From: an uncultured bacterium
GTDB lineage: Bacteria; Patescibacteriota; Minisyncoccia; Phycocordibacterales; GWA1-40-21
NCBI GenBank assembly: GCA_963804975.1
Contig: CAWDSG010000002.1
Location: 208,991-272,990, forward strand
DNA length: 64,000 nt
Reading direction: 5' to 3'
Shown here: in pieces, positions 4,765 through 64,000 of the stretch
Numbering within the stretch: the first letter of the stretch is position 1
Layout of the letters: every line of letters begins with the position of its first letter
Notes under the pieces: model-generated
The model's input: only the letters and a program-made list of their open reading frames with translations
What the model was told of the DNA's origin: nothing
The model's database searches: none
Translations under genes and position numbers: made by a program

Positions 4765-4779
4765 CTCGCGAAAGACAGA

Positions 4780-4855
4780 ATTTTCAGAGCACGGATATTT
4801 TTTTGCTAAAAAATTCCTCGTGCTCGCGCCGACGCGCTCGCAAGTCTCTGAAAAT
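4780..4855. repeat. hairpin-embedded intergenic repeat, copy C (downstream of rplY)
   Basis: 10-bp arms attttcagag/ctctgaaaat; the core ...tttgctaaaaaattcctcgtgctcgcgccgacgcgctcgcaag shares ctcgcgccgacgcgctc with copies A and B. Confidence 0.7.
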
Positions 4856-4873
4856 CCTATCTTTCACTCGTTT

Positions 4874-6235
4874 ATGTATATATCTAAAAAAACAATAATT
4901 ATTTTTTCTGCGGTTTTTTTCTTGTTTTCAACGCGTGCTTTTGGGCAGGCATCTGCCAATCCTACAAACCTATCCGGCACTTATCAGGCGGCGCTTCAAG
5001 CAGAGTACAACCAGATAGAATCGGAAATAAAACAGCAGGAAAACATCCTTCAGGATCAACAGTCAAAATCCGATTCGCTTTCAAAAGAAATAGCCACGTT
5101 TGATGCGACAATCAAAGAGTATCAGCTTGAGATCAAGGAAAGGAATATTTCCATACAGGAATTGACAGACCAGATAAACCAGAAGCAAAGCACAATCAAT
5201 GATTTGTCCAGCCAATTTGATGCCGAGAACCAATCACTATCGGCAATTTTGAGAAAAACAAACGAACAGGATTCAAGCACTCTTGCGGAATTTGTCCTTT
5301 CCGGAGAAGATTTGGCTAAATTTTTCAGCGATATCAGCGATTTCAAATCAATAAAATCTGCATTGCAGGATTCTTTCAGCCAGATTACCGACACTAAAGC
5401 GAAAACAGCCGACGAAAAAACGGCGCTTGAAAACCAGAAAGACGACGAAACTTCTCTGCTGAACCTGCAAAAACTCCAGCAGCAAAGAATTCAGGAAGAA
5501 AAAAACCAGGAAAATCAAATTCTGAAAGCATCAAAAGGACTCGAAGCGAATTATGAAGAAATTCTCAAGGAAAAAGCCATGACTGCAACCGAAATACGCA
5601 ATCAGCTTTTCTCGCTTCAAGGTTCAACGGCAATACCTTTTGATAAAGCGGTAGAGTATGCGACTTTTGTCGGGCAAAAAATCGGCATTCGTCCGGCATT
5701 TCTTCTCGGAGTGATTTCGGAAGAATCAAATCTAGGTGAAAATGTCGGCAAAGGCAATTGGCTTATTGATATGAAAGCACCGAGAGATACCGAACCGTTT
5801 TTGGCTATCACGAAAAATCTGGGACTTGATCCCGATCAGCAGCAGGTTTCGAAAAAGGCGTGGTACGGATACGGCGGAGCAATGGGTCCTGCGCAGATTA
5901 TTCCGTCCACATGGGTGATTTACGGTGGATACAGCAAGGATTCAAACGGAGATTGGGTTTATAACGCATCGGATGACCAGATACGGCAGGCGCTCGGTGA
6001 AAATCATTCCTCAAATCCTTGGGACCCGACAGATGCATTCACTGCTTCAGCGATTATTTTGGAAGATGGAGGGGCTGGTCTTCAGACTCCAAAAACAGAA
6101 CGGCTTGCCGCTTTACGCTACTTTGCCGGACGGGCAAATGCAAAAAAAAGAGCATATGCTTTTTATGGCGACGATGTAATGGCGCTTGCGGCGAAATATC
6201 AGGAACAAATCAATATCATTTTGGCAGTAAAATAA
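4874..6235 (+). CDS. secreted coiled-coil protein with C-terminal lytic-transglycosylase-like (SLT) domain
   Basis: Signal peptide (MYISKKTIIIFSAVFFLFSTRAFG), ~250-aa coiled coil, then 'AFLLGVISEESNLG' resembling the SLT catalytic Glu-Ser motif. The track ORF (4616) begins with 86 aa that overlap rplY out of frame and is trimmed. Confidence 0.5.
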   Translation: MYISKKTIIIFSAVFFLFSTRAFGQASANPTNLSGTYQAALQAEYNQIESEIKQQENILQDQQSKSDSLSKEIATFDATIKEYQLEIKERNISIQELTDQINQKQSTINDLSSQFDAENQSLSAILRKTNEQDSSTLAEFVLSGEDLAKFFSDISDFKSIKSALQDSFSQITDTKAKTADEKTALENQKDDETSLLNLQKLQQQRIQEEKNQENQILKASKGLEANYEEILKEKAMTATEIRNQLFSLQGSTAIPFDKAVEYATFVGQKIGIRPAFLLGVISEESNLGENVGKGNWLIDMKAPRDTEPFLAITKNLGLDPDQQQVSKKAWYGYGGAMGPAQIIPSTWVIYGGYSKDSNGDWVYNASDDQIRQALGENHSSNPWDPTDAFTASAIILEDGGAGLQTPKTERLAALRYFAGRANAKKRAYAFYGDDVMALAAKYQEQINIILAVK

Positions 6236-26113: not shown

Positions 26114-27016
26114 ATGTCTAGCAGGCACCTTGCAAGGGGAATAGTTCTACAGACCGCTTTTGAGTGGGATTTTCGAAATCTTAATAGGGACGAAGCTTTG
26201 GAATCCTTAGCCAGAAATATCAAGGAATTCGGCGACGGCGATTCGGAAGAATCTTTTTCGGAAAATCTTCTGAAGGGCGTCATTGATAAGAAAACGGATC
26301 TTGACACTATCATCGTGAAAGCGGCTCCGGACTGGCCGATTGAAAAAATTTCTATTGCGGATAGGAATATTTTGCGCATCGGCCTGTATGAATTACTGTT
26401 TAGTGACAGGAAAGAAGTGCCGGCAAAAGTCGCGATAAACGAAGCCATAGAGCTTGCAAAAGTTTATGGCGGAGAAAAAAGCGGCGGTTTTATTAACGGA
26501 GTTCTCGGTACGATATATAAAGAGCTTGGCGAGCCGGGCAAAGAGGAAACATCGAAAAAGAACAATAGGAATGTTCCATTTGAAAAAATGCCCATCAAAC
26601 GCCTTGCCGGAGCGGTAGTGTACTGTATCAAAGACGATACGATATATTTCGCTTTTGTCCATGATGTTTTTGGACGTTGGACTCTTTCCAAAGATAAAAT
26701 AAAAGAAAATGAAGAATTAAAGGACGGAGCAATAAGAGGGGTAAAAGAAGAAATGGGGATAGACGTTGTAGTTGAAAATGAACTTTCACAAAACGAATAT
26801 GTCGCGAACCATCCGGAAGAGGGCAAGATCAGAAAACAAGTCACTTATTTTCTCGCAAGCGCCGAAATGAAAGATCTGAAACTTGGTGATTCCGGCGGGC
26901 TTGATGACGCGAAATGGTTCAAATTGCAGGATATTCAGAGTCTCAATTTTTATAACGATATTTTGCCTATTATCACAAAGGCAATCACCATAATTTCAGG
27001 CAGGAAGCCAAAATAA
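26114..27016 (+). CDS. nusB: transcription antitermination factor NusB fused to a C-terminal NUDIX hydrolase domain
   Basis: N-terminal NusB helices (ARGIVLQTAFEWDF..., 'ILRIGLYELLF'); the C-terminal half carries the Nudix box 'GAIRGVKEEMGI'. Confidence 0.7.
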   Translation: MSSRHLARGIVLQTAFEWDFRNLNRDEALESLARNIKEFGDGDSEESFSENLLKGVIDKKTDLDTIIVKAAPDWPIEKISIADRNILRIGLYELLFSDRKEVPAKVAINEAIELAKVYGGEKSGGFINGVLGTIYKELGEPGKEETSKKNNRNVPFEKMPIKRLAGAVVYCIKDDTIYFAFVHDVFGRWTLSKDKIKENEELKDGAIRGVKEEMGIDVVVENELSQNEYVANHPEEGKIRKQVTYFLASAEMKDLKLGDSGGLDDAKWFKLQDIQSLNFYNDILPIITKAITIISGRKPK

Positions 27017-48216: not shown

Positions 48217-50265
48217 ATGAGCAAATTCAAGATAAAAGCAGAATATAAGCCGGCGGGAGATCAGCCACAGGCCATAAACGAGCTTGTGGATGGCATAGAA
48301 GCGGGTCTGAATAAGCAGACCCTTTTTGGCGTTACCGGAAGCGGGAAAACTTTCACCATCGCAAATGTCATAGAAAAAACTCAAAAGCCGACGCTTGTCA
48401 TTGCTCACAACAAAACTCTCGCTGCCCAGCTCGCCCAAGAATACAAAGAATTTTTCCCCGACAACGCCGTGCATTATTTCGTTTCGTATTACGACTACTA
48501 TCAGCCGGAGGCCTATATGCCGATCACGGACACTTATATTGAAAAAGAAGCGATGATAAATGAGGAGATCGACCGCCTTCGCCACGCTTCCACGCAGGCA
48601 TTGCTGACAAGAAAGGATGTGATCATTGTTGCCTCGGTTTCCTGCATTTACGGCTTGGGTTCTCCGGAAGATTATGAAAAGGTAAATATCAAACTCAATA
48701 TCGGCGACAAAACCACACGGCAGGATTTGATTAAAAAACTTATAAATGTTCATTTTAAAAGGACAAACTCGGACATTACCGCTGGCTCGTTCCGCGCAAT
48801 CGGCAATGCTATTGAAGTGATGCCGGTAAATGAAAAAATTCTCATTAGAATTGACCTCGCGGATGACCAGATAAAAAATATCTCGCGGATTGATTCGGTT
48901 TCAAGAAAGCTCGTGAAAGACAGTTTGAAATCAGTTTTCATTTTTCCGGCAAAACATTTTATTACGGATAAGGACCAGCAAAAGCGGGCGATAGCGAGCA
49001 TAAAAATTGAGCTTGAAGAGCAATTGAAAAAGCTGAAAAAGGAAGGCAGGCTTCTTGAAGCGGAAAGATTGCGAAGAAGAACCGCGCACGACTTGTCGCT
49101 CATAAGAGAAGTTGGTTATTGCAACGGCATTGAAAATTATTCAAGGCATTTTTCGGGGAAAGTTGCAGGAGAACCGCCGGATACCTTGCTTTCATATTTT
49201 CCAAAAGATTTTCTGACAGTAATAGACGAATCGCATGTCACGGTTTCGCAGATAAGAGGAATGTATGCCGGCGATGCTTCCAGAAAAAAGACACTTATTG
49301 ATTATGGTTTCAGATTGCCGTCTGCAAAAGACAACAGACCGCTCAAGTTTGAAGAATTTGAAAAGAAAGTCGGACAGACGATTTACACTTCCGCTACGCC
49401 GGGAGATTATGAAAGAGAAAATTCCAAGAAGATTGTGGAACAGATTATCAGGCCGACGGGTTTGATAGACCCGGTTATGGATATAAAACCGATTACCGAG
49501 GTAAAAGGTCGTAATAAATCGCAGGTTTATGATTTTATTGATGAAGCGCTGAAAGTTATAAAAAATGGGGGAAGAGTGATAGCAACAACGCTTACAAAAA
49601 AGATGGCGGAAGATTTGAGCGAATATCTGAAAGACCTGCCTACCGGCCAGGCAGGGAAAGGTAAAATCAAAGCGGAATATTTGCACAGCGAAATAAAAAC
49701 GATAGACAGAATAGATATTTTGACGAATTTCCGCAAAGGCAAATTTGATTGTATTGTCGGCGTGAACCTTTTGAGAGAGGGTTTGGATTTGCCGGAAGTG
49801 GAGTTTATCGGAATTCTTGATGCGGACAAGGAAGGATTTTTGCGTTCAGACACTTCGCTGATACAGACCATCGGCAGAGCTGCGAGAAATATTGCAGGCC
49901 GAGTGGTGCTTTATGCAGACCGAATTACCGGCTCAATTGAAAGGGCAGTGGATGAGACAAATAGACGAAGGGAAAAACAGATTGCTTACAACACAAAGCA
50001 TGGCATTACTCCAAAAACGATCGTCAAAAAGATCCACGATATTACCGAGCATATGCGAAGCGACCACGACAGAGCTGTTGCCGAACTTGTCAAAATTGAC
50101 GAGCAAATGGCAGAAAAAAGTCCCGCAAAATTGATTAAGCAAAAAGAAATTCAAATGAACGCCGCTGTGAAAATCCTGGATTTCGAATCCGCCGCGATTT
50201 TAAGGGATGAAATAGCAATATTAAAGAAACGACCAGAAACCAAACCTACAAAAGTAACAATCTAA
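48217..50265 (+). CDS. uvrB: excinuclease ABC subunit B
   Basis: 'GDQPQAINELVDG', Walker A 'GVTGSGKTFT', beta-hairpin, C-terminal UVR domain 'AAILRDEIAILKK'; in-frame 23-nt element at 49633-49655. Confidence 0.95.
   Translation: MSKFKIKAEYKPAGDQPQAINELVDGIEAGLNKQTLFGVTGSGKTFTIANVIEKTQKPTLVIAHNKTLAAQLAQEYKEFFPDNAVHYFVSYYDYYQPEAYMPITDTYIEKEAMINEEIDRLRHASTQALLTRKDVIIVASVSCIYGLGSPEDYEKVNIKLNIGDKTTRQDLIKKLINVHFKRTNSDITAGSFRAIGNAIEVMPVNEKILIRIDLADDQIKNISRIDSVSRKLVKDSLKSVFIFPAKHFITDKDQQKRAIASIKIELEEQLKKLKKEGRLLEAERLRRRTAHDLSLIREVGYCNGIENYSRHFSGKVAGEPPDTLLSYFPKDFLTVIDESHVTVSQIRGMYAGDASRKKTLIDYGFRLPSAKDNRPLKFEEFEKKVGQTIYTSATPGDYERENSKKIVEQIIRPTGLIDPVMDIKPITEVKGRNKSQVYDFIDEALKVIKNGGRVIATTLTKKMAEDLSEYLKDLPTGQAGKGKIKAEYLHSEIKTIDRIDILTNFRKGKFDCIVGVNLLREGLDLPEVEFIGILDADKEGFLRSDTSLIQTIGRAARNIAGRVVLYADRITGSIERAVDETNRRREKQIAYNTKHGITPKTIVKKIHDITEHMRSDHDRAVAELVKIDEQMAEKSPAKLIKQKEIQMNAAVKILDFESAAILRDEIAILKKRPETKPTKVTI
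49633..49655 (+). repeat. in-frame palindromic 23-nt element (DLPTGQAG) in uvrB
   Basis: gacctgcctaccggccaggcagg. Confidence 0.9.
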
Positions 50266-50344
50266 TTGAAGTTGTTTGTACTGTGGATAACTAAGTGTTG
50301 CAAAAAAGGGTATAATAGGCACGTAAAAGGATCTGAATTTTTTC

Positions 50345-50373
50345 TTGCTAATTAAAAATATTTGTGTTATAAT
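50345..50373 (+). promoter_or_regulatory. sigma70-type promoter TTGCTA-17-TATAAT abutting the Panacea gene ATG (leaderless-type)
   Basis: The -10 box ends 6 nt before the ATG at 50380; no SD. Confidence 0.55.
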
Positions 50374-50379
50374 CAAGGC

Positions 50380-50922
50380 ATGAAAATACCCATCACAAAA
50401 CTTAAGGCAATATTGTTGTATTTTTATACTTATACAGATTCACGACTTCTTGGAAAAGTGAAGTTAATGAAACTGTTTTATTTTCTTGATTTTACTCACA
50501 TAAAAAAATATGGTGTTCCTGTAACATTTGATACTTATGTAAAATTGGAACACGGACCAATACCTTCCACAATAAAAAACCTTATCGATACTGCAGATGA
50601 TGATATTGATAACTCATTCTTATCAGATACAATTTCTATTGAAATGTCTGAAGAAAATAAAATGCACCGTATTGTTGGATCAAGAAAATTCAATGACAAA
50701 GATAGCAAATTATTCTCTGAAAATGAATTAAAAATTCTTCAGGAAGTATGTTTACGATTTGGAGATAAAAATACAGGATATATTGAAAAAGCTTCTCATG
50801 AAGAAGCTCCTTGGAAATTATCAAACATGTTTGATAATATTTCTTATTCTTTGGCGGCAAAAGATACTGATAGTTTGATTTCAGAAGAACAAATAAAATT
50901 TTTTGAAGAAATAACAAAATAA
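50380..50922 (+). CDS. Panacea-domain (DUF4065, SocA-like) antitoxin-type protein
   Basis: 'KLMKLFYFLDFTHIKKYGVPVTFDTYVKLEHGPIPSTI' matches the DUF4065/Panacea core. The track uses TTG at 50362; the first ATG is 50380, directly after TTGCTA-17-TATAAT. Confidence 0.65.
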   Translation: MKIPITKLKAILLYFYTYTDSRLLGKVKLMKLFYFLDFTHIKKYGVPVTFDTYVKLEHGPIPSTIKNLIDTADDDIDNSFLSDTISIEMSEENKMHRIVGSRKFNDKDSKLFSENELKILQEVCLRFGDKNTGYIEKASHEEAPWKLSNMFDNISYSLAAKDTDSLISEEQIKFFEEITK

Positions 50923-50926
50923 TTCA

Positions 50927-51316
50927 ATGGATGGAACTCTTGTAACATTTGGAGACGTTTTTAGATACAACGAAGAATTTTATGTTTATTTAGCATTAAA
51001 CGCAGATGCGGGTATATTATATGCTGCAAGAATATTAAATGAAGGTCAAACCAAGGCGTTTGATAAGATGAGTATTAAAAGTAAGATTGACGATGAAAAA
51101 AACTTGACCTTTTGTTATGTTATGCTCAAAACGGAAAATTTTAAAAATAGAGCGGCTCATTTTTATCAAAATGAACATGAAAGTTCAAATATCTATATAG
51201 AAAAATTTTGTTCACTTGATAAAGAAGATTTAATAAAGATAAAAGCCCAGGTAATGGATAGTAAGGCAATATCTCAAAACTTGAAAGATGCAGTCAAAGA
51301 TATTACTCTGTCATAA
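50927..51316 (+). CDS. hypothetical protein, candidate toxin partner of the Panacea gene
   Basis: 129 aa, starts 4 nt after the Panacea stop, no recognisable domain. Confidence 0.35.
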   Translation: MDGTLVTFGDVFRYNEEFYVYLALNADAGILYAARILNEGQTKAFDKMSIKSKIDDEKNLTFCYVMLKTENFKNRAAHFYQNEHESSNIYIEKFCSLDKEDLIKIKAQVMDSKAISQNLKDAVKDITLS

Positions 51317-51365
51317 CTATAAATGGTAAGGTTGAACTTTGCCATTTATAATAATTTTGATTTAT

Positions 51366-51397
51366 TTGCCAAACTTTAAAACTAAGAATAGTATAAT
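51366..51397 (+). promoter_or_regulatory. TTGCCA-17-TAGTAT(AAT) promoter of module 51405
   Basis: Conserved 'atttgccaaa' -35 context. Confidence 0.5.
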
Positions 51398-51404
51398 TTA
51401 ACAT

Positions 51405-51956
51405 ATGTATATATCAACTTGGATCATTATAATTATAGTTATTGTTGGAATATATTTTTACCGTAAATCCAAAAAGCAAAATAAGAGTATATCAGAAAAT
51501 CAATTGCTAACCGCTGATGAAATGTGGGTACGAGCAGAAGTATATATGGAAAGAGTAATGAGAAAAAGTCCTAATATAGAAAAATATCTGCAAGATGAAA
51601 GAGATATGGTAAAAGCTATGGAAAGAGACATGGTACGCCTTCGGGAACGTTTTAAACATGATCCAAAAAAACAACTTGAGATTGCACAAGGTTGGATGGA
51701 TTATTCTCATGCAGTAGAAAGGATAAAATTTTCTAGAGAGTTATTAGATGTTGATATGGAACATAATGCTTATGATTCGCATGATGAACGAACTAAGGAA
51801 GCGTGGATTACTATACCAGAAATTGCAAAACGAGTTGAAAATATACTTGGAAAAGATTCGAGTTCTAAGTTAGTGCATGACAGGCTTTATAGAAATGCAG
51901 AAGCTACAGGAGAGGTTGTTACTGATTTTGTTCTTAAAAATAAAAATAAATCTTAA
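51405..51956 (+). CDS. membrane-anchored hypothetical protein
   Basis: N-terminal TM (WIIIIIVIVGIYFY), charged helical remainder; own TTGCCA-17-TAGTAT promoter abutting the ATG. Confidence 0.3.
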   Translation: MYISTWIIIIIVIVGIYFYRKSKKQNKSISENQLLTADEMWVRAEVYMERVMRKSPNIEKYLQDERDMVKAMERDMVRLRERFKHDPKKQLEIAQGWMDYSHAVERIKFSRELLDVDMEHNAYDSHDERTKEAWITIPEIAKRVENILGKDSSSKLVHDRLYRNAEATGEVVTDFVLKNKNKS

Positions 51957-52006
51957 GAAATTTTGATATCATTGTTGATTTCAGCAATTTTAATTAATTT
52001 CCCAAT

Positions 52007-52042
52007 CTCCAAAACCAAAATAAAAGAAAATCCCACGAAAAC
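52007..52042 (+). repeat. 36-nt direct repeat, left copy (ctccaaaaccaaaataaaagaaaatcccacgaaaac)
   Basis: About 33 of 36 identical to 52674-52709; flanks the two-gene module 52133-52614. Confidence 0.75.
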
Positions 52043-52058
52043 CGTGCGGTTTTTTTAT

Positions 52059-52087
52059 TTGCCAAAAATACAAACTCGGCGTAGTAT
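52059..52087 (+). promoter_or_regulatory. TTGCCA-17-TAGTAT promoter of module 52133
   Basis: tttatttgccaaaaatacaaactcggcgtagtat. Confidence 0.5.
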
Positions 52088-52132
52088 TTAAGATAGAAGT
52101 AAATTGACTAAATCCGATTCAAGGAGATAGCG

Positions 52133-52381
52133 ATGAAAAAAACATTTAAGAGATTATGGTTGCATGTTTTATTAATCGGCAAGACGTTGAACACTAGTGG
52201 AATCATTTGTTTCTTCAGGCTAAGACACAAGTTTGATCCGATTGAAGTTGAAGCTCATTATTTGCATGCCAAATGTTATCTATGCAAAAAAAAGCTTTAT
52301 TACGCCAAATCTTCCAACGAGTATAAAAACTTGTTGGAAGAAAATTCGCGATTCTTGAAAACGAAAGGAATGGAATCATGA
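52133..52381 (+). CDS. hypothetical small protein (module gene 1)
   Basis: 82 aa; AAGGAG RBS; its stop overlaps the next gene's start (ATGA). Confidence 0.3.
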   Translation: MKKTFKRLWLHVLLIGKTLNTSGIICFFRLRHKFDPIEVEAHYLHAKCYLCKKKLYYAKSSNEYKNLLEENSRFLKTKGMES

Positions 52382-52614
52382 AAAAAGTTGAATTGACATT
52401 TATGGTCGTCCCCGAGTTTTTGAAAAGCCATTGTTTCATCAAAGATCCGGTCAAGATCAAGATCATTGATCCAGGAGCCATTTTTCTTACAGGCATTCTC
52501 GGCGAAAGCGGAAGAAAAATGGTGAAGGCGGGCATTCCATTTTATTTCAAACGGAAGCTTGCCGAACATTTGATCAATAAAGGAATCGCGGTACGAATAC
52601 CAAGCAGGAAATAA
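52378..52614 (+). CDS. hypothetical small protein (module gene 2)
   Basis: 78 aa, translationally coupled to the upstream gene. Confidence 0.3.
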   Translation: MKKVELTFMVVPEFLKSHCFIKDPVKIKIIDPGAIFLTGILGESGRKMVKAGIPFYFKRKLAEHLINKGIAVRIPSRK

Positions 52615-52673
52615 TATCGCATTTCCAACAAAAGCACACGACCTTCTGGTACGGTGCTTTTTTATTTGCTAAC

Positions 52674-52709
52674 CTCCAAAACCAAAATAAACGAAAACCC
52701 CACAAAAAC
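52674..52709 (+). repeat. 36-nt direct repeat, right copy (ctccaaaaccaaaataaacgaaaaccccacaaaaac)
   Basis: See the left copy. Confidence 0.75.
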
Positions 52710-52710
52710 T

Positions 52711-52932
52711 CTAAGGTCTTCGTGGGGATTTTTTTCTTCTTGGCTTGGTTCCCAAACAGCACAAACCAGTCCTTATCTTTTTTGAATGAATCGGATGTTC
52801 TGTTTCAAATCCGCATTCAGGACACGGATGGCCGCGATAAGGTTTGAATGTTCGCGCCTTTACAGATGCGGCATGACCAGTAGACCCATTTAAATTAAAA
52901 AGCAATTCTTCTTTTATAGTTTTAAGTTTCAT
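52711..52932 (-). CDS. hypothetical small protein with zinc-ribbon-like CPECG motif
   Basis: 73 aa; AAAGGAG RBS on the minus strand; 'HPCPECGFETEHPIH...CC'. Confidence 0.25.
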   Translation of the reverse strand: MKLKTIKEELLFNLNGSTGHAASVKARTFKPYRGHPCPECGFETEHPIHSKKIRTGLCCLGTKPRRKKSPRRP

Positions 52933-53000
52933 GGCAAACTCCTTTCGTTTTCAATCTATTTTCAGTATAAACAAATAATAATATTTGTCTAGATTTAAAT

Positions 53001-53028
53001 TTGCCAAAATCCAAAATAGGTGTAATAT
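53001..53028 (+). promoter_or_regulatory. TTGCCA-16-TAATAT promoter of module 53109
   Basis: aaatttgccaaaatccaaaataggtgtaatat. Confidence 0.45.
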
Positions 53029-53108
53029 CCAATCAGAAGCAAAAATCGATAAACCGGAGAAGTTGAGTCATCAGCGCAATCTAAAATTCTTTTGAAAAGG
53101 AGAAAACA

Positions 53109-53771
53109 GTGAAAAAATTGTTCGCCGTCGTCGTTTTGTTTTTAGTCGTTGTTTCAAATGTTTCGGCAGGAAGCAGTGAATTTAAAGTAGGAATCGGACC
53201 GGAAATAAACTGGACGAACGTTCCTATCACCTCTGATCCGACAATTGGAAACGTGGTTTTGGGAAATCCTGCGATAGGGGAGAATATTTTTTTACAGTAC
53301 AGGCCGAAATATCTTTTCGGAACAATCGCCGTGAAAGCCGAAGCGAGCATGTTCGGAAAACAGGACTTTGCCTCGGAGAACCTGAGCGTGTCGGGAAGCG
53401 AAACGACAAGCTCATGTGGCTTTATTTTGAAAGTTTATCCTCCGGTCAAAGGACATATTGAACCGTATGGCGGAATCGGCGCCGATTATGTCAGCGTTAT
53501 AGGCGGATATTCTCGCCCGACAACCCAGACGATAAATATTTACGGCCAATCGGTTGATATTCCGACGATGACCACGACAGCGGTTTGTCTCGGATCATGG
53601 ATACCCAAAGCAGAGGTTGGCGCGGATATATCCATTATCGATGATCATTTCTCAATATATATAGAAGGATTTGATATGTTTTTAAATGAAATGAAAGGCG
53701 GCGAAGCCGATAATCTTGCAAAGAAAGCCAGCAGTATCGGATTATCGGTAGGAGGAGCCATATCGTTTTAA
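53109..53771 (+). CDS. secreted beta-rich protein resembling an 8-strand outer-membrane beta-barrel (OmpW/OMP_b-brl-like)
   Basis: GTG start after AGGAG; signal peptide ...VSA/GS; alternating hydrophobic dyads; C-terminal '...GLSVGGAISF' ending in Phe, as in OMP beta-signal. Confidence 0.4.
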   Translation: MKKLFAVVVLFLVVVSNVSAGSSEFKVGIGPEINWTNVPITSDPTIGNVVLGNPAIGENIFLQYRPKYLFGTIAVKAEASMFGKQDFASENLSVSGSETTSSCGFILKVYPPVKGHIEPYGGIGADYVSVIGGYSRPTTQTINIYGQSVDIPTMTTTAVCLGSWIPKAEVGADISIIDDHFSIYIEGFDMFLNEMKGGEADNLAKKASSIGLSVGGAISF

Positions 53772-53837
53772 TTAAAAAGATATATTAAAATTAAAAACCC
53801 GTTTCAAAGAAAAGAAACGGGTTTTTTATTGCAAAAT

Positions 53838-53886
53838 TTGCCAAAACTCTTATTTTCTTGACTTTACTAAATATTAATGATACTAT
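53838..53886 (+). promoter_or_regulatory. promoter region of module 53925 (TTGCCA context; TTGACT-17-TACTAT)
   Basis: aaatttgccaaaactcttattttcttgactttactaaatattaatgatactat. Confidence 0.4.
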
Positions 53887-53924
53887 TGCTTTAGAGTAAA
53901 ACATCCGCCACGAGGGAGGATCAC

Positions 53925-54371
53925 ATGTTATCTGATAAATCAAATAAGATTGATTTGTCTGAGGAAATTATGTGTGCATTGATATTTGCAAGAAGCATAA
54001 TACGGAAATTTTTTGGCCGAAACATTGTCTTTAAACAAGCGACTATTTATCAAGAAAACAAAGAGGTTGATAGGTATGAAGTCGAAATCAAAACGGTAAT
54101 AAAAACTGAAGATAGCTGCAACCCATTTCTCTTTGGAGTTGTATTTGGTTTTACGCTTGCCGGCACGAATGGCTTTTCGCCTGAACCAAATGGCGAAGTA
54201 GCAATGCGGTTGGTGTACGGTATGGGGAAAAAGGATGAAGACCTTTCTTTCGTTTATAATCAAGGAGGGTTTAATTTCTCCGACAACACACGAAAACTTT
54301 TGAATGAACTACGCGCAAAGATAGGTTTACCAGAAATAGATTTGCCGGAATTCATTCAAAACCCATCTTGA
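53925..54371 (+). CDS. hypothetical protein
   Basis: 148 aa; GGGAGG RBS; own promoter and terminator. Confidence 0.3.
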   Translation: MLSDKSNKIDLSEEIMCALIFARSIIRKFFGRNIVFKQATIYQENKEVDRYEVEIKTVIKTEDSCNPFLFGVVFGFTLAGTNGFSPEPNGEVAMRLVYGMGKKDEDLSFVYNQGGFNFSDNTRKLLNELRAKIGLPEIDLPEFIQNPS

Positions 54372-54434
54372 TAAATATCGACAACGCCCACGAAAAGCCC
54401 AGTGCTTCTCGCGGGCTTTTTGTTTGTAAAATAT

Positions 54435-54463: not shown

Positions 54464-54513
54464 GCTCGTACATAACCCTATGGGGCAAACCCGAGGGTAA
54501 TTTGGCTTTATAT

Positions 54514-57204
54514 ATGAAAACAACATTTAACGAAAAGTCACCAAAAATCATTGTAAAAGGGGCGAGAACTCACAATCTTAAGAATATTACTGTTGAGATG
54601 CCTCGCAATAAGATGATCGCCATTACAGGGATTTCCGGCTCAGGGAAGTCGTCTTTTGCATTTGACACTATTTTTGCCGAAGGCCAGAGGCGATATGTTG
54701 AATCGCTTTCTTCTTATGCAAGGCAATTTTTGCATCAGATGCAGAAGCCGGATGTGGACGAAATAGTCGGGCTTTCGCCTGCAATTTCAATAGACCAAAA
54801 ATCCCGTTCAAACAATCCTCGTTCAACCGTGGCGACTATCACGGAAATTTACGATTATTTGAGAATTTTATATGCAAGAATCGGCAAACCGCACTGCCTT
54901 GTCTGCGGACGCGAAATTAAAAAACTTTCAAAAGAGGAAATTTTGGAAACAATTATTCATACTGTTACGCATATCAAATCTCCGCAGAAATCCAAAGAAG
55001 TGCTCGGGGTGAAAGTAACAAGCGACCCCGGTGAAGTAAAAAACGCACTACTTCACGGGGCAAGCAAGATCAGAATTTTTTCTCCGGTTGTTGTCGGCAG
55101 AAAAGGGGAGTACTACCAGCTTCTTTACGATTTGATAGAAAAGGGCTATGAATACGTAAAAATAGACGGCGAGCTTAAAAAGCTCCGCAACCAGATAATT
55201 CTCGCCAAAAACAAAAAGCACGATATTGATGTGCTTGTTGATGAATTTTACATAAGCGAGTTTATTTTGACAAAAACTGGCACAAGCAAGGCAGTTGAAG
55301 CGGATAGGCAAAGATTTGAAAATGTAAAAACCCGACTTTCAGACGCGGTGGAAAAAGCCATTGAGGAATCAAAAGGGCTTTTGAAAATTGAAACGCCTGA
55401 AGACCTGCCTACCGGCCAGGCAGGAACCAAAATGATCTCCGTTAAATTTATGTGCCCTTACGATGGCTATTCATATCCAGAAATAGAACCGCGGCTTTTT
55501 TCATTCAATTCGCCATATGGCGCATGTCTAACTTGCCACGGCCTCGGCACAAAAGATTTTTGGACTGACGAACCTTGCGAAACGTGTCATGGCAAGAGAT
55601 TGCGAGAAGAAGCGCTGCATGTACTTATTGGAGATATAAATATCGTGGAATATACCGCTAAATCAATCGGAGATGCGAAAAATTTTATGGAAAATCTGAA
55701 ATTGACCGAGCTTGAACAGGAAATTTCCCGGGTAATTCTGAAAGAAATTGACTCACGGCTCCAATTTATGATGGATGTCGGCATTGAATATCTTTCGCTT
55801 GATAGACGGGCAAATACTCTTTCAAACGGCGAAGCGCAAAGAATCCGCCTTGCTTCGCAGCTCGGCTCCGGCCTTGTCGGCGCTCTTTATGTGCTGGATG
55901 AACCGACAATCGGCTTGCATCAGAGAGACAACGACAAGCTTATAAAAACATTGATAAATCTGCGCGATCTGGGAAATACGATTCTTGTGGTTGAACACGA
56001 CGAAGATACGATGTTTGCTTCGGATTATATCGTTGATATCGGTCCCGGTGCCGGAGTGCACGGAGGAAAAGTCGTTGTTTCCGGATATATGGACGAGCTT
56101 TTGACCGCGAAAGAAAATAAATCCGGTTCAATCACGCTTGATTATCTTCGCGGTGATATGAAAATTGAAATGCCGAAAAAAAGACGCGATCAAGACAAGG
56201 GAAAAATAAAAGTGCGAGGCGGAAAAATTTTCAATATAAAAAATATGAATGTTGAAGTGCCGCTTGGAAAATTTGTGACTATCACGGGAGTGTCCGGCTC
56301 GGGAAAGTCATCTCTGGTATATGAGATTTTGCACAAAAACCTGCGGGCACGGCTTGAAAGAAAATTTCGCAACGCAAATACTTACAATTGCGAGTCATTT
56401 GCCGGCTCGGAATATGTTTCAAGGACGATTATGATAGACCAGTCGCCGATAGGAAGGACTCCTCGTTCAAATCCGGCAACTTATATCGGTGCGTGGACTT
56501 TTATCCGCGATATGTTTGCTATGACGGCGATGGCGCGAGAAAGAGGCTGGGGAGCAAACAGATTTTCATTTAACGTAAAAGGCGGAAGATGCGAAGCATG
56601 CCAAGGAAACGGAACGATTGAAGTGGAAATGCACTTTTTGCCGACGATTTATGTGCCGTGCGACATTTGCCATGGAAAAAGATTTACCAAGGAGACATTG
56701 GAAGTGAAATACAAAGGGAAAAATGTCCATCAAGTGCTTGAAATGACTGCAGAGGAAGCTTTGGAATTTTTTGCCGATTTGCCGGCGGTTTACGACAGGT
56801 TGAAATGCGTGAATGAAGTCGGACTTGGATATTTGAAACTCGGGCAATCTGCCACGACGCTTTCCGGCGGAGAAGCGCAGAGAGTGAAAATCGCTTCGGA
56901 ACTTTACAGGCCGGATTTGCACAAGACAATTTATTTTTTGGACGAGCCGACAATCGGGCTTCATTACGAAGATGTAAAAAAACTTATTGAAATTTTACAG
57001 AAGCTTGTTGATAACGGAAATACTGTCGTAGTTATTGAGCACAATATGGATCTGATAAAAAATTCCGATTATGTGATAGATATCGGGCCGGAAGGCGGAG
57101 ACAGGGGCGGGGAAATTGTCGCCAAAGGGACGCCGGAGAGTGTAGCGGAAAATGAAAAGAGTTATACTGGTAAATATTTGAAGAGAATTTTGAAGAGAAA
57201 ATAG
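54514..57204 (+). CDS. uvrA: excinuclease ABC subunit A
   Basis: '[14 protein letters not shown]', two ABC modules (GISGSGKSS..., GVSGSGKSS...), zinc fingers; the track start TTG at 54502, and the ATG at 54514 aligns with the canonical UvrA N-terminus; in-frame 23-nt element at 55402-55424. Confidence 0.95.
55402..55424 (+). repeat. in-frame palindromic 23-nt element (DLPTGQAG) in uvrA
   Basis: gacctgcctaccggccaggcagg. Confidence 0.9.
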
Positions 57205-60260: not shown

Positions 60261-60334
60261 GGGCCCGTAGTTCATCTGGCTAGAACGCCTCATTTGCAAT
60301 GAGGAGGTAAGCGGTTCAAGTCCGCTCGGGTCCA
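60261..60334 (+). tRNA. tRNA-Ala (anticodon TGC)
   Basis: Cloverleaf folded by hand: acceptor GGGCCCG/CGGGTCC with the G3:U70 AlaRS identity pair, anticodon loop TTTGCAA, T-arm AGCGG-TTCAAGT-CCGCT; the D-arm is atypical. Confidence 0.6.
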
Positions 60335-60451
60335 CTACGACTTTACAATAAATAGATTTTATTCTAATATGAAAAACAGATCGGTTTCAGTCAAATACTG
60401 GGCCGGTTCTTTGTTAAATAAGCTTTAAAATTCAAAAAAGGGCGGTGCCTA

Positions 60452-62434
60452 ATGGGAAAGACAGCTTTTCAAAAAATTATCGACTCGCATCTCTTGAGGA
60501 CACTGCCTGATGGCAGGATGGTTCTAAGGTTGGATTGGGTCTGGGGTCATGAGATTACGACTCCGAACGCAATTCTTGATGTGAAAGAGCGTGGTTGTGA
60601 TGTGGTTTTCAATCCGAACAGGGTGAAGACCATGATTGATCATGTAAACCCAGCAAAAGATAAACTTTCAGCGGTCCAGGGCAAATTACTTCGTGATTGG
60701 AGCAGGGAACACAACATTGAATTTCTCGAAGTCGGAAGAAACGGCGTCTGTCATGCCATCATTCCTGAAAAGGGATGGATTCTTCCGGGCCAGATCGGAA
60801 TCATGGGCGATAGCCATACTTGTACGCACGGCGCTTTCTGCGCCTTCACGGCAGGTGTCGGAACGACTGAACAAGAGATCGGCGTCATAACCGGCCTCTG
60901 GGTCTGTCCTCCGCAAAAGGTTATCCGAGTGAACTTTACTGGCAATTTGCCGCCAAATGTTTTCTCGAAAGATCTTATCCTCTATCTCATCAACAAGATC
61001 GGAGTCAATGGCGCGACGAACGCAGTGCTCGAATTCGGCGGTCCAGTCATCGAGAAGATGAGCATTCAAGCTCGTATGACCATGACCAACATGGCTGTCG
61101 AAGCCGGTGCAACCTCGGGAATGATGATGGTGGACGAAAGGACCATCACTTTTCCGGCGTATCGGGCTCTTTGCGACGAATATCGCAAGAAAGAAAAGTA
61201 CTACAACCACAAAGATTTGAGTGATCTTGTTGCCGCCCAATGGAATAGCGATTCTGACGCGGTCTATGACCAAGTCATCGACATCGATGTTTCTAATATG
61301 ATTCCGGTTGTGACCGACGGCTATTCTCCCGGTGATGTGAAGAAGGTATCAGAACTTACCGGAAAAAAAGTCAACCAGGTCTATATCGGTTCCTGCACGA
61401 ACGGCAGAATCGAGGATTTGCAGATTGTTGCCGAGATTTTCTCAAGGATGAAACGAAAAGTGGCGGACAGTGTCCGTTGCATCATCGTTCCCGCTACGCG
61501 ACATATATTCGAGATGGCACTCAAGGAAGGCCTCATTGCGGAGTTTGTCCAGGCCGGCTGTTATGTAAGCGGTCCAACTTGCGGAGCATGCCTCGGCATG
61601 AGTTGCGGGGTAATTGCTCCGGGAGAAGTTTGCGTTTCGACGACGAATCGCAATTTTCCCGGACGCATGGGCAAAGATGGGATGGTGCATCTGGTATCTC
61701 CAGCAACCGCGGCAATGACTGCGATTGAAGGATGTATTACGGAAGCAACGCCTGTTTTTTGCGGGGAAATTCTTGGGGATTATTCCGTACCATCCTTTGA
61801 TACCAATGAAACCGATGATAGGACGACTGATTGGAAGGATGTTTCATTTACTCCGCCAGTCTATAAGGACCTGCTCGAAAAGATCAGCGCCGGTAAGAAA
61901 AAAGATTTTTCCGGCGCAACAACCTTTTTGCCGGTGTCCAACGTAGACACCGACCAGATCATTCCAGCCAGGCACTTAACCGAAACCGACAAGGTTGAAC
62001 TCGGGAAACATTGTCTCGAGGACGTTCCAACCATTTCGGCTGAGGAAAGATCGAACCTCGGTTCGATTTTAGTGGCCGGAGAAAACTTTGGTTGCGGTTC
62101 GTCTCGTGAACACGCCCCTTGGGCGCTTGAAGCTGCTGGTATTCGGTGCGTCATTGCCCCGAGTTTCGCCCGCATCTTCGAGAACAATATGTTCGTGAAC
62201 GGATTGTTGTGCATCACTCTTCCGAAGGAGATCGTGCAGAAAATCTTCGATTCGAAAACGGGTCACATTGAGATCAACTGGGAGGAAGGTCTCGTCAAAT
62301 GGGGCAGTTCGGAGAATGAAGAAGCTAAGTTCATTCTTTCCGACTACCAGAAGGACTTGATCCGCGCCGGTGGAAGCTTGGGCGTAAGTTTGAAGTTTGC
62401 CGCCGAACTTCAAGAAGAAGGAAAACTGCAATAA
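60452..62434 (+). CDS. aconitase-superfamily hydro-lyase, fused large (LeuC-like) and small (LeuD-like) subunits
   Basis: Fe-S ligand motifs 'GSCTNGRIEDL' and 'CGACLGM', C-terminal swivel domain 'GENFGCGSSREHAPWAL'; the coding region is visibly GC-richer than the rest of the window. Confidence 0.8.
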   Translation: MGKTAFQKIIDSHLLRTLPDGRMVLRLDWVWGHEITTPNAILDVKERGCDVVFNPNRVKTMIDHVNPAKDKLSAVQGKLLRDWSREHNIEFLEVGRNGVCHAIIPEKGWILPGQIGIMGDSHTCTHGAFCAFTAGVGTTEQEIGVITGLWVCPPQKVIRVNFTGNLPPNVFSKDLILYLINKIGVNGATNAVLEFGGPVIEKMSIQARMTMTNMAVEAGATSGMMMVDERTITFPAYRALCDEYRKKEKYYNHKDLSDLVAAQWNSDSDAVYDQVIDIDVSNMIPVVTDGYSPGDVKKVSELTGKKVNQVYIGSCTNGRIEDLQIVAEIFSRMKRKVADSVRCIIVPATRHIFEMALKEGLIAEFVQAGCYVSGPTCGACLGMSCGVIAPGEVCVSTTNRNFPGRMGKDGMVHLVSPATAAMTAIEGCITEATPVFCGEILGDYSVPSFDTNETDDRTTDWKDVSFTPPVYKDLLEKISAGKKKDFSGATTFLPVSNVDTDQIIPARHLTETDKVELGKHCLEDVPTISAEERSNLGSILVAGENFGCGSSREHAPWALEAAGIRCVIAPSFARIFENNMFVNGLLCITLPKEIVQKIFDSKTGHIEINWEEGLVKWGSSENEEAKFILSDYQKDLIRAGGSLGVSLKFAAELQEEGKLQ

Positions 62435-62452
62435 AGCTTTTTAATCAGTACA

Positions 62453-62528
62453 GCGCCGCCCCTTAAAAAAGGACGGCGTTTTTTTATTAATAAAAAAACG
62501 CCGTCTCCGTTTCCGAAGGCGGCGTTTA
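62453..62528. terminator. pair of GC hairpins forming convergent terminators between the LeuCD-like and LeuB-like genes
   Basis: cgccgcccc..ggacggcg+T7 and A7+cgccgtctccgtttccgaaggcggcg. Confidence 0.65.
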
Positions 62529-62537
62529 TCCTCAACT

Positions 62538-63695
62538 TCACATAAAGGAACGGATTTTCTTTCCCATCTCGACAGTTCCGAGAAGCTTGTTCGCCTCAAA
62601 TTTGCCGGCGACCAAATCCGCAGTCCGGAAACCTTCCTCAAGAGTTGTCGAGACAGCTTGCTCAATCGCGTTCGCACCCTTGACCGCGCCAATATGCCGG
62701 AGCATCATCGCGCCAGTTAAAATGCGCCCGATCGGATTGGCTTTATCCAAACCTTTTAGGGTCGGGGCAGTGCCGGCGCCGCTTTCAAACATAGCGTCTC
62801 CAGTATCAGGATTGACGGCAGAACTGCACATCAGACCCATACTGCCGAAAATCTGGGCTGCTCCGTCCGAAACGATATCGCCGTGTTCGTTTCCGCATAT
62901 GATGACTCCATGGAGCAATTCCGGTTTGCACAAAAGCGCATTCGCGGAATCAACATACTGATGCCCAATGAATTTCACCTGCGGAAATTCTTCTTTTGCG
63001 ATTCGCGTAACGATTTTCCTCCAGAATTCGTAACGCGCCATCACATTGGCCTTGTCCACGGAAATTACCGGTAGTTCCGCCGTAACAGCATATTTAAATG
63101 CCGCTCTGACATACTTCTCGATCGTTGCCTTGCGGTAGTAGGCGATGTCCGAGACGATCTCTTCATTTCCCGTGACATCTTTCTTCATCATCATACCGAT
63201 TATCTTGCGAGTTTCCTCCGGAACATCATGAAAAAGATCGGCATTTCCGTAGTAGCTGTCCTCAAGCAAAAAACGAAGCCAGATTTGTCGGATGATCTTG
63301 TCCGGGATCAGTTCCGGTTTCAGCGCTGAGAGATGCTTGAGCTCAGGATACCAAATCAAGGGACGGAAGTTTTGCAACAATCCCATTCCTTTCCTGATCC
63401 TAAGCAAACTGCGAGGTTCCGGTTTCATTTCCGGTTCAATCTCGCCGATAGTATCGTCATATTTTGGATCTCCTACGCCGCCCGAGTAAAGTATCCCAAG
63501 CTCGGCGGCTTTTTCGTACGACTCGTCAGGGCAAGTATCGCTATACTTTTGGTAAGCGTTCCAACCCATCGGCGTATCCACGAATTCGACGTAGATGCCG
63601 TCCATTTCTGCCGCCTCAATTACAAGAGGACAAGCGACATCCATCATTTCCGGACCGGCACCATCTCCTCTTGCCAAAGCAATAAACTTTTTCAT
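62538..63695 (-). CDS. isopropylmalate/isocitrate/homoisocitrate dehydrogenase family protein
   Basis: 'IALARGDGAGPEMM' N-terminus and the beta-decarboxylating dehydrogenase fold motifs ('NEHGDIVSDGAAQIFGSMGL'); GGA-rich RBS; GC-rich. Confidence 0.8.
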   Translation of the reverse strand: MKKFIALARGDGAGPEMMDVACPLVIEAAEMDGIYVEFVDTPMGWNAYQKYSDTCPDESYEKAAELGILYSGGVGDPKYDDTIGEIEPEMKPEPRSLLRIRKGMGLLQNFRPLIWYPELKHLSALKPELIPDKIIRQIWLRFLLEDSYYGNADLFHDVPEETRKIIGMMMKKDVTGNEEIVSDIAYYRKATIEKYVRAAFKYAVTAELPVISVDKANVMARYEFWRKIVTRIAKEEFPQVKFIGHQYVDSANALLCKPELLHGVIICGNEHGDIVSDGAAQIFGSMGLMCSSAVNPDTGDAMFESGAGTAPTLKGLDKANPIGRILTGAMMLRHIGAVKGANAIEQAVSTTLEEGFRTADLVAGKFEANKLLGTVEMGKKIRSFM

Positions 63696-63819
63696 TTCCT
63701 TTTCCTTTCATTCATTTTTAATGAGCTAAAATTTCTTTACTTTTAAACTTTGTTCTAGGATTAAACTACAAAATAATAAGTAAATTGTCAATCCGCAACA
63801 GTGCGGATTTTAATGCTTG

Positions 63820-63892
63820 TGGACCGCACCGGGATCGAACCGGTCGCCTCATCCATGCCATGGATGCGCTCTACCAAATGAGCTAGCGGCCC
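63820..63892 (-). tRNA. tRNA-Ala (anticodon GGC)
   Basis: Reverse complement folds as acceptor GGGCCGC/GCGGTCC (G3:U70), D-arm TAGCTCATTTGGTAGAGC, anticodon loop ATGGCAT, T-arm ACCGG-TTCGATC-CCGGT. Confidence 0.8.
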
Positions 63893-64000
63893 CTTAATAA
63901 CCCGCCAAGTATATTATAAAAATAATTAAAAATCAAAAAAATAGAATTAAAACTTTTTTTGTGTTATAAATTATATGTTGAAGGCGGGGCGATTAGCTCA

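Follow-up and report, generated by a model that had tools for sequence, protein, structure and literature searches.

A fused leuCD gene and a divergent leuB in a variable, tRNA-bounded slot of a Patescibacteria genome, and the case for their lateral acquisition

How did two comparatively GC-rich metabolic genes come to lie between a pair of tRNA-Ala genes in an ultra-small bacterial genome, and which reactions would their products catalyze? The question is raised by a stretch of 64,000 nucleotides (nt), referred to here as the window, from an uncultured bacterium of the Patescibacteriota (Minisyncoccia, GWA1-40-21; assembly GCA_963804975.1, contig CAWDSG010000002.1, positions 208,991 to 272,990 of the forward strand). 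All window coordinates are counted from its first letter. An earlier note on this DNA had reported that the two tRNA genes enclose convergent genes for a 660-residue fused protein of the aconitase family and a 385-residue protein of the Iso_dh family, and had proposed that both were acquired horizontally. Analyses with ARAGORN, Rfam, and Pfam recovered the two tRNA-Ala genes, the two proteins, and the convergent order as described (Table 1). The protein-coding genes, designated leuCD and leuB below and together the cassette, occupy a slot that is hypervariable and integration-prone, and they were probably acquired by this lineage from another, GC-richer Patescibacterium.

Comparison loci, designated by L-numbers (L003, L013, L033, and so on), were taken from species-representative genomes and metagenomes. 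They include four distinct close relatives of the window (L033, a contig of 681 kb; L035/L036; L080; and L081 to L083), whose proteins are 75 to 79% (Ddl), 68 to 70% (UvrC), and 80 to 85% (UvrA and UvrB) identical to those of the window. The gene order TGT-uvrB-...-uvrA-uvrC-ddl-tRNA-Ala(tgc) is common to the window and the four relatives, and homology stops at the 3' end of the tRNA gene. Beyond this point were found a large serine recombinase gene abutting the tRNA gene (L080); recombinases, an ice-binding protein, and a sortase (L033); a pilin-like protein and a PAS protein (L035); and HNH, CI-like repressor, and two-component genes (L081). No acn or idh homologue was detected within 10 kb of the slot in the four relatives. 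The suspicion that the slot is prone to integration, which the note had drawn from the general behavior of tRNA genes, was thus borne out: the four syntenic relatives hold differing cargo, which in two of them includes serine recombinases at the tRNA, and the pair is missing from all four. In L033 and L035, homology to the window resumes at a tRNA-Val(cac) (-) and tRNA-Ala(ggc) (+) pair, which is present but inverted in the window; the tRNA-Ala(GGC) gene of the relatives is on the ddl strand, with tRNA-Val as its partner.

The large serine recombinase genes of L080 (2988-4652, -) and L033 (11021-12190, -) abut or overlap tRNA-Ala(tgc) downstream of ddl. Because recombinase genes are located at this tRNA in two relatives, integrative elements of the lineage seem to use tRNA-Ala(tgc) as an attachment site. 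The two tRNA-Ala genes encode different tRNAs with little identity, which ruled out recombination between them as inverted repeats.

The base composition of the pair sets it apart from the rest of the window, as previously noticed. The GC contents of leuCD and leuB are 0.493 and 0.495, versus a mean of 0.394 for the other 43 long open reading frames (ORFs) of the window (standard deviation [SD], 0.035; maximum, 0.447), and the GC contents at third codon positions (GC3) are 0.54 and 0.55, versus a mean of 0.387 (SD, 0.066; maximum, 0.47). The two genes are the top outliers of the window, with z values of about 2.8 for GC and 2.4 to 2.5 for GC3. The accompanying statement that their codons are dominated by GCC, GGC, and CGC was not confirmed, since the commonest codons are GAA, ATC, GAT, AAA, ATG, and ATT. 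The GC content at 4-fold degenerate sites (0.555) is within the range of the window (mean, 0.47; SD, 0.10; maximum, 0.61). The excess of the pair due to codon choice is the largest of the 45 window ORFs, although this is a moderate signal only. ATA accounts for 4 to 10% of the Ile codons of the pair versus 22 to 56% in other window genes, AGA accounts for 11 to 12% of the Arg codons versus 25 to 75%, and the pair is also richer in 2-fold degenerate codons ending in C or G. The genes for S2, EF-Ts, and the aldolase in the window do not display this signature, indicating that it is not an expression-linked bias of the host, which was ruled out as its source.

Copies of the cassette in other members of the Patescibacteria, or candidate phyla radiation (CPR), provide a baseline for these values. 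In ilv-leu clusters (L013; L021, with a host GC of 0.47), the composition of the cassette matches that of the adjoining biosynthetic genes, indicating that a baseline excess of about 0.03 to 0.05 is only a matter of amino acid composition. Only some lineages, chiefly those in the subclade closest to the window, show the large excess at the codon level. The GC3 of the window cassette (0.54 to 0.55) is on a par with the 0.50 to 0.54 of the cassette in GC-richer CPR lineages bearing clusters for branched-chain amino acids (BCAAs), and the cassette is compositionally at home in CPR lineages with a host GC of 0.45 to 0.47. The GC3 of the window cassette thus fits a not yet ameliorated import from a GC-richer CPR background. 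Taken alone, the GC excess is weak evidence for transfer.

The expectation that phylogeny would place the pair outside the host lineage was contradicted. The cassette belongs to a CPR-wide clade at 59 to 72% identity, with non-CPR sequences at 55% or less, so that any donor must be sought among other CPR bacteria. For the fused protein, more than 120 full-length homologues were found at 61 to 70% identity, the named ones being from Patescibacteria, and about 45 distinct CPR loci were found at 59 to 72% identity in species-representative genomes and metagenomes. The hosts include Nealsonbacteria (a complete genome), Falkowbacteria, Gribaldobacteria, and Paceibacterota. The best non-CPR relatives belong to the Desulfobacteraceae (52 to 55%) and the Planctomycetes (45%), and the non-CPR relatives that were checked (L023, L076, L026, and L064) have separate leuC and leuD genes. 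No cassette protein of more than 72% identity was present in a 5.8-billion-protein database, which includes the contigs of the relatives (one of 681 kb). The dehydrogenase gene is directly downstream and on the same strand in every other two-gene locus, making the window the only convergent case, and tRNA-Ala genes flank no other cassette locus.

Judging from synonymous divergence, the unit is mostly vertically inherited in the CPR, with episodic horizontal replacement. The block shared by L012, L046, and L049 has the -35 box and the terminator as its exact limits, with 91 to 93% DNA identity between flanks that are 70% identical or unrelated; the proportion of synonymous differences (pS) is 0.10 to 0.38 for the cassette and 0.71 to 0.74 for the flanks where these are related, as expected for horizontal replacement. 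For L003/L007, pS values of 0.54 to 0.58 (cassette) and 0.81 to 0.83 (flanks) would indicate either a younger cassette or constrained synonymous sites. The cassette value is somewhat lower than that of the flanks for L040/L041 (0.28 to 0.36 versus 0.48 to 0.57). The opposite is found for L020/L021 (0.63 for the cassette, 0.46 to 0.54 for three flanking genes, and 0.66 for a fourth), in keeping with an older cassette that is inverted between conserved flanks. In this case, leuCD-leuB is inverted (L020:9971-13648 versus L021:9980-13086) in an otherwise collinear ilv-leu cluster, with 75 to 78% amino acid identity for the cassette versus 86 to 94% for most flanking proteins, which suggests that the leuCD-leuB unit alone was replaced or inverted. 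The strongest codon excess is found in the copies with signs of recent exchange.

Lateral acquisition is our best reading of the window, and a probable one, because codon usage is atypical, the relatives do not have the cassette in the slot, and exchange was detected in other CPR bacteria. The earlier proposal of horizontal acquisition therefore stands as regards the variable slot and the codon usage, but its GC argument is weak by itself and the proteins are not foreign to the CPR. The cassette would have entered the lineage by lateral transfer from a GC-richer Patescibacterium into the tRNA-bounded slot. Inversion of leuB, which now has a predicted promoter and a predicted terminator of its own, would have followed, and the tRNA-Ala(GGC)/tRNA-Val pair would also have been inverted. 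Deriving the gene order of the window from a tandem cassette and the tRNA orientation of the relatives takes two rearrangements or more, with breakpoints beyond the window. We infer the direction and the date of the transfer.

Several observations weigh against lateral acquisition. The window contains no integrase gene, the island itself consisting of the two enzyme genes only, and a repeat scan revealed neither an attachment site-like direct repeat above chance nor a partial tRNA copy between the borders. About 0.055 of the GC excess of about 0.10 arises from amino acid composition and about 0.04 from codon choice, so that the pair would still have a GC content of 0.452 to 0.455 with the average synonymous usage of the window. 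The GC content of the cassette exceeds that of its flanks at every locus tested (by 0.02 to 0.16), except that the hydratase gene of L055 merely equals its flank. This includes comparisons in which the pS of the cassette is similar to that of the flanks or both are saturated (L021/L057, L055/L057, L038/L070, and L009/L039), a pattern that points to vertical descent. Genes uvrB and uvrC adjoin the cassette in the distant CPR lineages L017/L062 and L022, as they do in the window, and the linkage may therefore be old. Finally, the relatives may have a copy of the cassette elsewhere in their genomes, since the searched stretch was the 10 kb around the slot. Together with the wide distribution of the cassette over CPR classes, several of these observations would suit vertical inheritance at this position, in which the relatives lost the cassette as mobile elements turned over the slot and the GC and codon peculiarities were kept by amino acid constraint and selection on synonymous sites. 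We consider this scenario a serious rival, though the less likely of the two, because the slot is devoid of the cassette in all four distinct relatives, each with different cargo, and no orthologue of more than 72% identity is known in spite of the 80 to 85% identity of UvrA and UvrB in the relatives. In addition, the codon signature is absent from the compositionally at-home copies (L013 and L021), indicating that it is not intrinsic to these genes.

Acquisition from outside the Patescibacteria, from a free-living bacterium or an archaeon, is very improbable. The large-subunit part of the fused protein does match archaeal-type LeuC and HacA models and structures best, which could go back to an ancient origin of the CPR clade as a whole. 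However, all matches at 59 to 72% identity are Patescibacteria metagenome-assembled genomes or CPR-like contigs (AT-rich, with the fused gene), the Desulfobacteraceae and Planctomycetes proteins are only 45 to 55% identical and unfused, and the dehydrogenase belongs to a discrete, CPR-centered subfamily. We give almost no credence to an assembly or binning artifact, in which a foreign fragment would have been joined at the tRNA genes. In an independent short-contig assembly from the same sample, contigs end inside tRNA-Ala(tgc), at 60310, and at a palindrome (see below), at 62476, and the left junction is without independent confirmation. However, contig L037, from an independent assembly, is 100% identical to the window over 62476-64000 and joins leuB, tRNA-Ala(ggc), the spacer, and tRNA-Val. 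This independent confirmation of the right junction excludes mis-binning. Furthermore, the tRNA-Ala(ggc)/spacer/tRNA-Val region of the window is 80 to 88% identical to the tRNA region of the relatives, and records of both Ddl and the dehydrogenase exist for this sample.

The locus resembles tRNA-associated genomic islands in its position immediately past a tRNA 3' end, its atypical codon usage, and its absence from the same site in close relatives. It differs from such islands by the lack of an integrase, of direct repeats, and of other mobile-element genes, its cargo being a single housekeeping-type transcription unit; recombinase-bearing elements are present at the same tRNA in the relatives but not in the window.

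The gene context of the cassette bears on the second part of the question. The enzyme families, the fusion, and the two-step logic of a hydratase followed by an oxidative decarboxylase had all been correctly recognized in the earlier note, which had left a list of possible chemistries; gene context narrows this list to isopropylmalate or citramalate. In L013, the genes for the fused LeuCD and the dehydrogenase are followed by those for LeuA (771 bits; cutoff, 532), a ThrC/IlvA-like protein, IlvE, and IlvD. In L021 (relatives L020, L055, and L057), the order is LeuA-like, fused LeuCD, dehydrogenase, and ThrC-like, then IlvD, IlvB, and IlvC. A leuA-leuC-leuD-leuB operon is found in each of the non-CPR relatives L026 and L064. 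Finally, a canonical LeuB equivalog replaces the usual partner, here termed type A, in L011 and L022 (522 and 460 bits; cutoff, 393), and a replacement of the same type is found in L017 and L071, although L017 scores 330 bits, below that cutoff. On the basis of these contexts, the cassette appears to consist of a fused LeuCD and a divergent LeuB, enzymes that seem ordinary in themselves. The LeuC-LeuD fusion, acting as a [4Fe-4S] hydro-lyase, would isomerize 2-isopropylmalate (or citramalate) to a 3-alkylmalate. The divergent LeuB would oxidatively decarboxylate this product to 4-methyl-2-oxopentanoate or 2-oxobutyrate, with reduction of NAD(P)+. Exactly which substrate and which cofactor are used, and what the pair does physiologically in the absence of leuA, are matters that we infer.

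The fused protein is composed of a LeuC-like part (approximately residues 1 to 432), a poorly conserved linker (residues 433 to 495), and a LeuD-like part (residues 496 to 660). Pfam detected the aconitase catalytic domains 1 to 3 (PF00330; 1.8e-101) and the swivel domain Aconitase_C (PF00694; 7e-25). The protein passed the cutoffs of the subfamily models NF001614 (484 bits; cutoff, 385), TIGR01343 (440; 385.7), TIGR02087 (114; 109), and hacA_fam. The translation contains the motifs IMGDSHTCTHG, GSCTNGR, PTCGACLG, TNRNFPGRMG, and GCGSSREHAPW, and the three Cys residues of the [4Fe-4S] cluster are kept. In aconitases and LeuCD enzymes, these motifs provide cluster ligands and catalytic residues. 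The specificity loop of the small domain, HLTE in the window, reads YLTE in 36 of the 38 remaining aligned fused sequences and YLNE in L006; it carries neither Arg nor another positively charged residue for a gamma-carboxylate, and the corresponding loop of homoaconitase is YLRT. A mosaic origin of the fused protein of the window, considered because its LeuD loop has AR..ELG in common with L020, L021, L055, and L057, was ruled out since identities are uniform across the domains. The exact fused protein of the window is absent from protein and gene collections, although records exist for Ddl and the dehydrogenase of this genome; gene calling or an indexing gap may account for the absence.

Among solved structures, the isopropylmalate/citramalate isomerase LeuCD of Methanocaldococcus jannaschii (large subunit, PDB 4KP1/4NQY; small subunit, 3VBA) scored best with the large-subunit part (333 bits) and second best with the small part (91 bits, versus 97 for LeuD of Campylobacter jejuni, 3Q3W). 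The Fe-S hydro-lyase motifs and the lack of Arg in the specificity loop are common to the M. jannaschii enzyme and the window protein. The former consists of two separate subunits and has the loop YLVY, whereas the CPR proteins are fused via a linker of about 60 residues and have YLTE or HLTE; the CPR small domain is nearer to bacterial LeuD in length, with a long loop containing an FG motif. Fungal Leu1-type isopropylmalate isomerases carry the large and then the small part on one chain. The window protein shares this order with Leu1 and with fused aconitases (PRK07229 and TIGR01342), and it aligns with PRK07229 over its full length but is far below the cutoffs for fused aconitases. The CPR fusion forms a clade of its own, and its nearest relatives are unfused bacterial leuC and leuD genes, indicating that it probably arose independently of fungal Leu1 and of the fused aconitases.

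The dehydrogenase (Pfam Iso_dh, PF00180; 3.6e-79) belongs to a discrete subfamily, type A, comprising about 12 clusters at 50% identity that score 250 to 455 bits, versus 205 bits at most for ordinary LeuB. One named member is from Uhrbacteria, and the subfamily is CPR centered. The best solved matches of the window protein are LeuB enzymes of bacteria and plants (3U1H, 1A05, and 5J32; 170 to 176 bits), with only about 35% identity. Alignment with these structures indicated that the window protein keeps the residues by which isopropylmalate dehydrogenase (IPMDH) binds substrate and metal and carries out catalysis (E..LL..R..R, R/Y, K, D, and D..D), and these are conserved in 27 type A sequences. 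The hydrophobic Leu-Leu pocket is also kept (PEPRSLLRIRK in the window; consensus, PEAR(A/C)LL.LRK). In IPMDH, Leu-Leu and the upstream Glu line the pocket for the alkyl group, whereas isocitrate dehydrogenase (ICDH) has Ser/Asn and homoisocitrate dehydrogenase (HICDH) has Arg instead. Type A differs from ordinary LeuB by RFLLED in place of RELTGG, by an insertion of about 28 residues after the catalytic Tyr, and by AGTAPTL(A/K)G (AGTAPTLKG in the window) in place of HGSAPDIAG, with loss of the NAD-specifying Asp. The "type B" partners of other loci (L011:2163-3296, L022:12130-13212, L071:1049-2158, and L025 and L026 of Planctomycetes) carry GGSAPKY(A/T)G, whose Lys-Tyr pair is the motif of NADP-dependent ICDH. 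Neither type of partner of the fused LeuCD therefore has the NAD-specifying Asp, a hint that NADP may be used.

Three sets of results speak against a plain assignment to leucine biosynthesis. No equivalog cutoff was reached, either by the fused protein (TIGR02083, 395 of 611 bits; TIGR00170, 294 of 560; TIGR00171, 109 of 116; TIGR02084, 122 of 246) or by the dehydrogenase (TIGR00169, 215 of 353 bits; NF002898, 140 of 393). The NAD-specifying Asp is absent from all 27 type A sequences, which have Thr (24 sequences, including that of the window), Ser (2 sequences), or Leu (1 sequence), and this replacement makes the cofactor preference of type A LeuB uncertain. Finally, most cassettes, including that of the window, have no leuA within reach. 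In the window, leuB alone adjoins leuCD, and no leuA homologue was found across the 64 kb, as the earlier note had observed. In the database searched, CPR-type LeuA is much rarer than the cassette, with about 25 clusters at more than 60% identity before non-CPR phyla take over; none of these clusters is on a large cassette-bearing contig, the search being one that misses divergent leuA-like genes such as that of L021. The CPR BCAA clusters also encode proteins of 612 to 616 residues (L013:6090-7928 and L021:13319-15169) that represent an unusual fusion: the N-terminal part is similar to threonine synthase/threonine ammonia-lyase and the C-terminal part to the regulatory region of 2-isopropylmalate synthase (LeuA_dimer).

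A pair made of aconitase and ICDH, or of homoaconitase and HICDH, would form a module of the tricarboxylic acid cycle or lysine type, as might be supposed from the full-length alignment with the fused aconitate hydratase model PRK07229 and from the passing of the hacA_fam cutoff. We regard this as highly unlikely, since the scores are 342 for PRK07229 (cutoff, 612) and 353 for HacA_Meth (cutoff, 550), and those for the ICDH and HICDH models are far below their cutoffs. Moreover, the YLTE/HLTE loop does not contain the Arg of the homoaconitase YLRT loop, the dehydrogenase retains the Leu-Leu of IPMDH, and orthologues are found in leuA/ilv clusters. If the cassette does encode LeuCD and LeuB, its occurrence without leuA may be accounted for, quite tentatively, by a self-contained module circulating horizontally among Patescibacteria as a device for salvage and redox purposes instead of de novo leucine synthesis. 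In most hosts, the stand-alone unit would work without leuA and convert 2-alkylmalates derived from partner cells to 2-oxoacids for transamination to Leu or Ile, together with NAD(P)H, possibly NADPH because the NAD-specifying Asp is lost; in one subclade, it would be under the control of a dedicated, attenuator-like 5' leader not described before.

That leader was detected in a sister subclade of cassettes, outside the window. It is a conserved sequence of about 95 nt behind a TTGACT-N17-TAATGT promoter, which has the same position in other cassettes as the promoter-like site of leuCD in the window. It consists, in order, of hairpin 1, a U-run, a conserved TTGTTCGTT.ACAACG stretch, hairpin 2, and a purine-rich ribosome binding site, and hairpin 1 with the U-run looks like a terminator or attenuator. 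The leader sites are L003:7904-8007, L007:9897-9997, L008:9900-9997, L014:7383-7483, L018:9905-9994, L038:9904-10003, L044:9904-9997, and L012:509-618. Compensatory changes are present in 9 of the 11 predicted pairs, and a covariance model (R1) run over 743 kb had 15 cassette leaders as its sole significant matches. The leader of this subclade matches no Rfam family. The 5' leader of leuCD in the window was ruled out as a member of this two-hairpin family, since R1 had no match in the window. A search for a riboswitch, a T-box, or a known leader upstream of either window gene gave no Rfam match at gathering level and no convincing one.

The features of the locus are listed in Table 1. The convergent genes leuCD and leuB are separated by a spacer of 103 nt with one terminator-like hairpin for each gene, and each gene has a promoter-like site. 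The tails of the two convergent terminators make a perfect palindrome of 17 plus 17 nt (GACGGCGTTTTTTTATT / AATAAAAAAACGCCGTC) at 62472-62505, which was detected by both the repeat scan and the terminator scan.

Table 1. Features of the tRNA-bounded slot and its borders in the window
Feature	Position	Strand	Basis or remark
tRNA-Ala(TGC)	60261..60335	+	ARAGORN and Rfam; left border of the variable slot
Predicted promoter-like TTTACA-N17-TAATAT for fused leuCD	60342..60370	+	Consensus scan
5' leader hairpin followed by a U-rich tract	60375..60415	+	Fold, -16.7 kcal/mol; z only -1.1
Fused LeuC-LeuD, 660 aa	60452..62434	+	Pfam Aconitase and Aconitase_C
Terminator-like hairpin and T-run, putative end of the leuCD transcript	62453..62486	+	Read from the sequence
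Terminator-like hairpin and T-run, putative end of the leuB transcript	62489..62527	-	Read from the sequence; inverted repeat I22, arms 62496-62509 and 62514-62527
Divergent LeuB-like dehydrogenase, type A, 385 aa	62538..63695	-	Pfam Iso_dh
Predicted promoter-like TTGACA-N17-TAGTTT for leuB	63763..63791	-	Found by eye; below the threshold of the consensus scan
tRNA-Ala(GGC)	63819..63892	-	ARAGORN and Rfam; right border of the slot
tRNA-Val(CAC), 5' start, cut by the window end	63988..64000	+	Matches tRNA-Val of L033 and L035; extended by contig L037

The remaining genes of the window encode Rpe, a class II aldolase, a release factor (RF), S2, EF-Ts, PheST, GyrB, a sortase, ThrRS, DnaE, NusB, RNase III, SMC, RNase R, TGT, UvrB, UvrA, UvrC, and Ddl, a gene set typical of Patescibacteria, and the homologues of Ddl carry the names Paceibacterota, Minisyncoccia, or Patescibacteria. 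A second variable slot is found at 50300-54400, between uvrB (48217-50265) and uvrA (54502-57204). This slot is low in GC (0.28 to 0.32 for the ORFs at 50362-50922 and 51405-51956) and holds a SocA/Panacea antitoxin-domain protein and ORFs with no Pfam match. The cargo of the relatives between or beside the uvr genes includes a TIR-domain protein (L033), an ASCH protein (L035), and an NgoPII restriction enzyme with its methylase (L081). Elsewhere in the window, a 300-residue protein combines NusB and NUDIX domains (26114-27016), and an ORF of 539 residues has no Pfam match (4616-6235).

Genetic exchange has been reported to shape the metabolic capacities of groundwater Patescibacteria (PMC12455944). 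The setting of that study is similar, since several of the related contigs analyzed here are from groundwater metagenomes, but it makes no mention of isopropylmalate, leu genes, or aconitase-family genes. We found no description of a leuCD-leuB cassette in the CPR in the searchable literature. The chemistry and the island mechanism are conventional, and the locus is of moderate interest for the unexplained stand-alone distribution of the cassette.

The locus illustrates cleanly how a transcription unit of the housekeeping type can occupy a tRNA-bounded hot spot in an ultra-small genome. The usual description of Patescibacteria has them incapable of amino acid synthesis. Many of them keep a fused leuCD and a divergent leuB, and complete leuA-ilv clusters occur in a minority. 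Horizontal exchange of the unit, from its promoter through its terminator, takes place in at least some lineages. Should leuA truly be missing from most hosts, the cassette would point to a hand-off of metabolites with partner cells.

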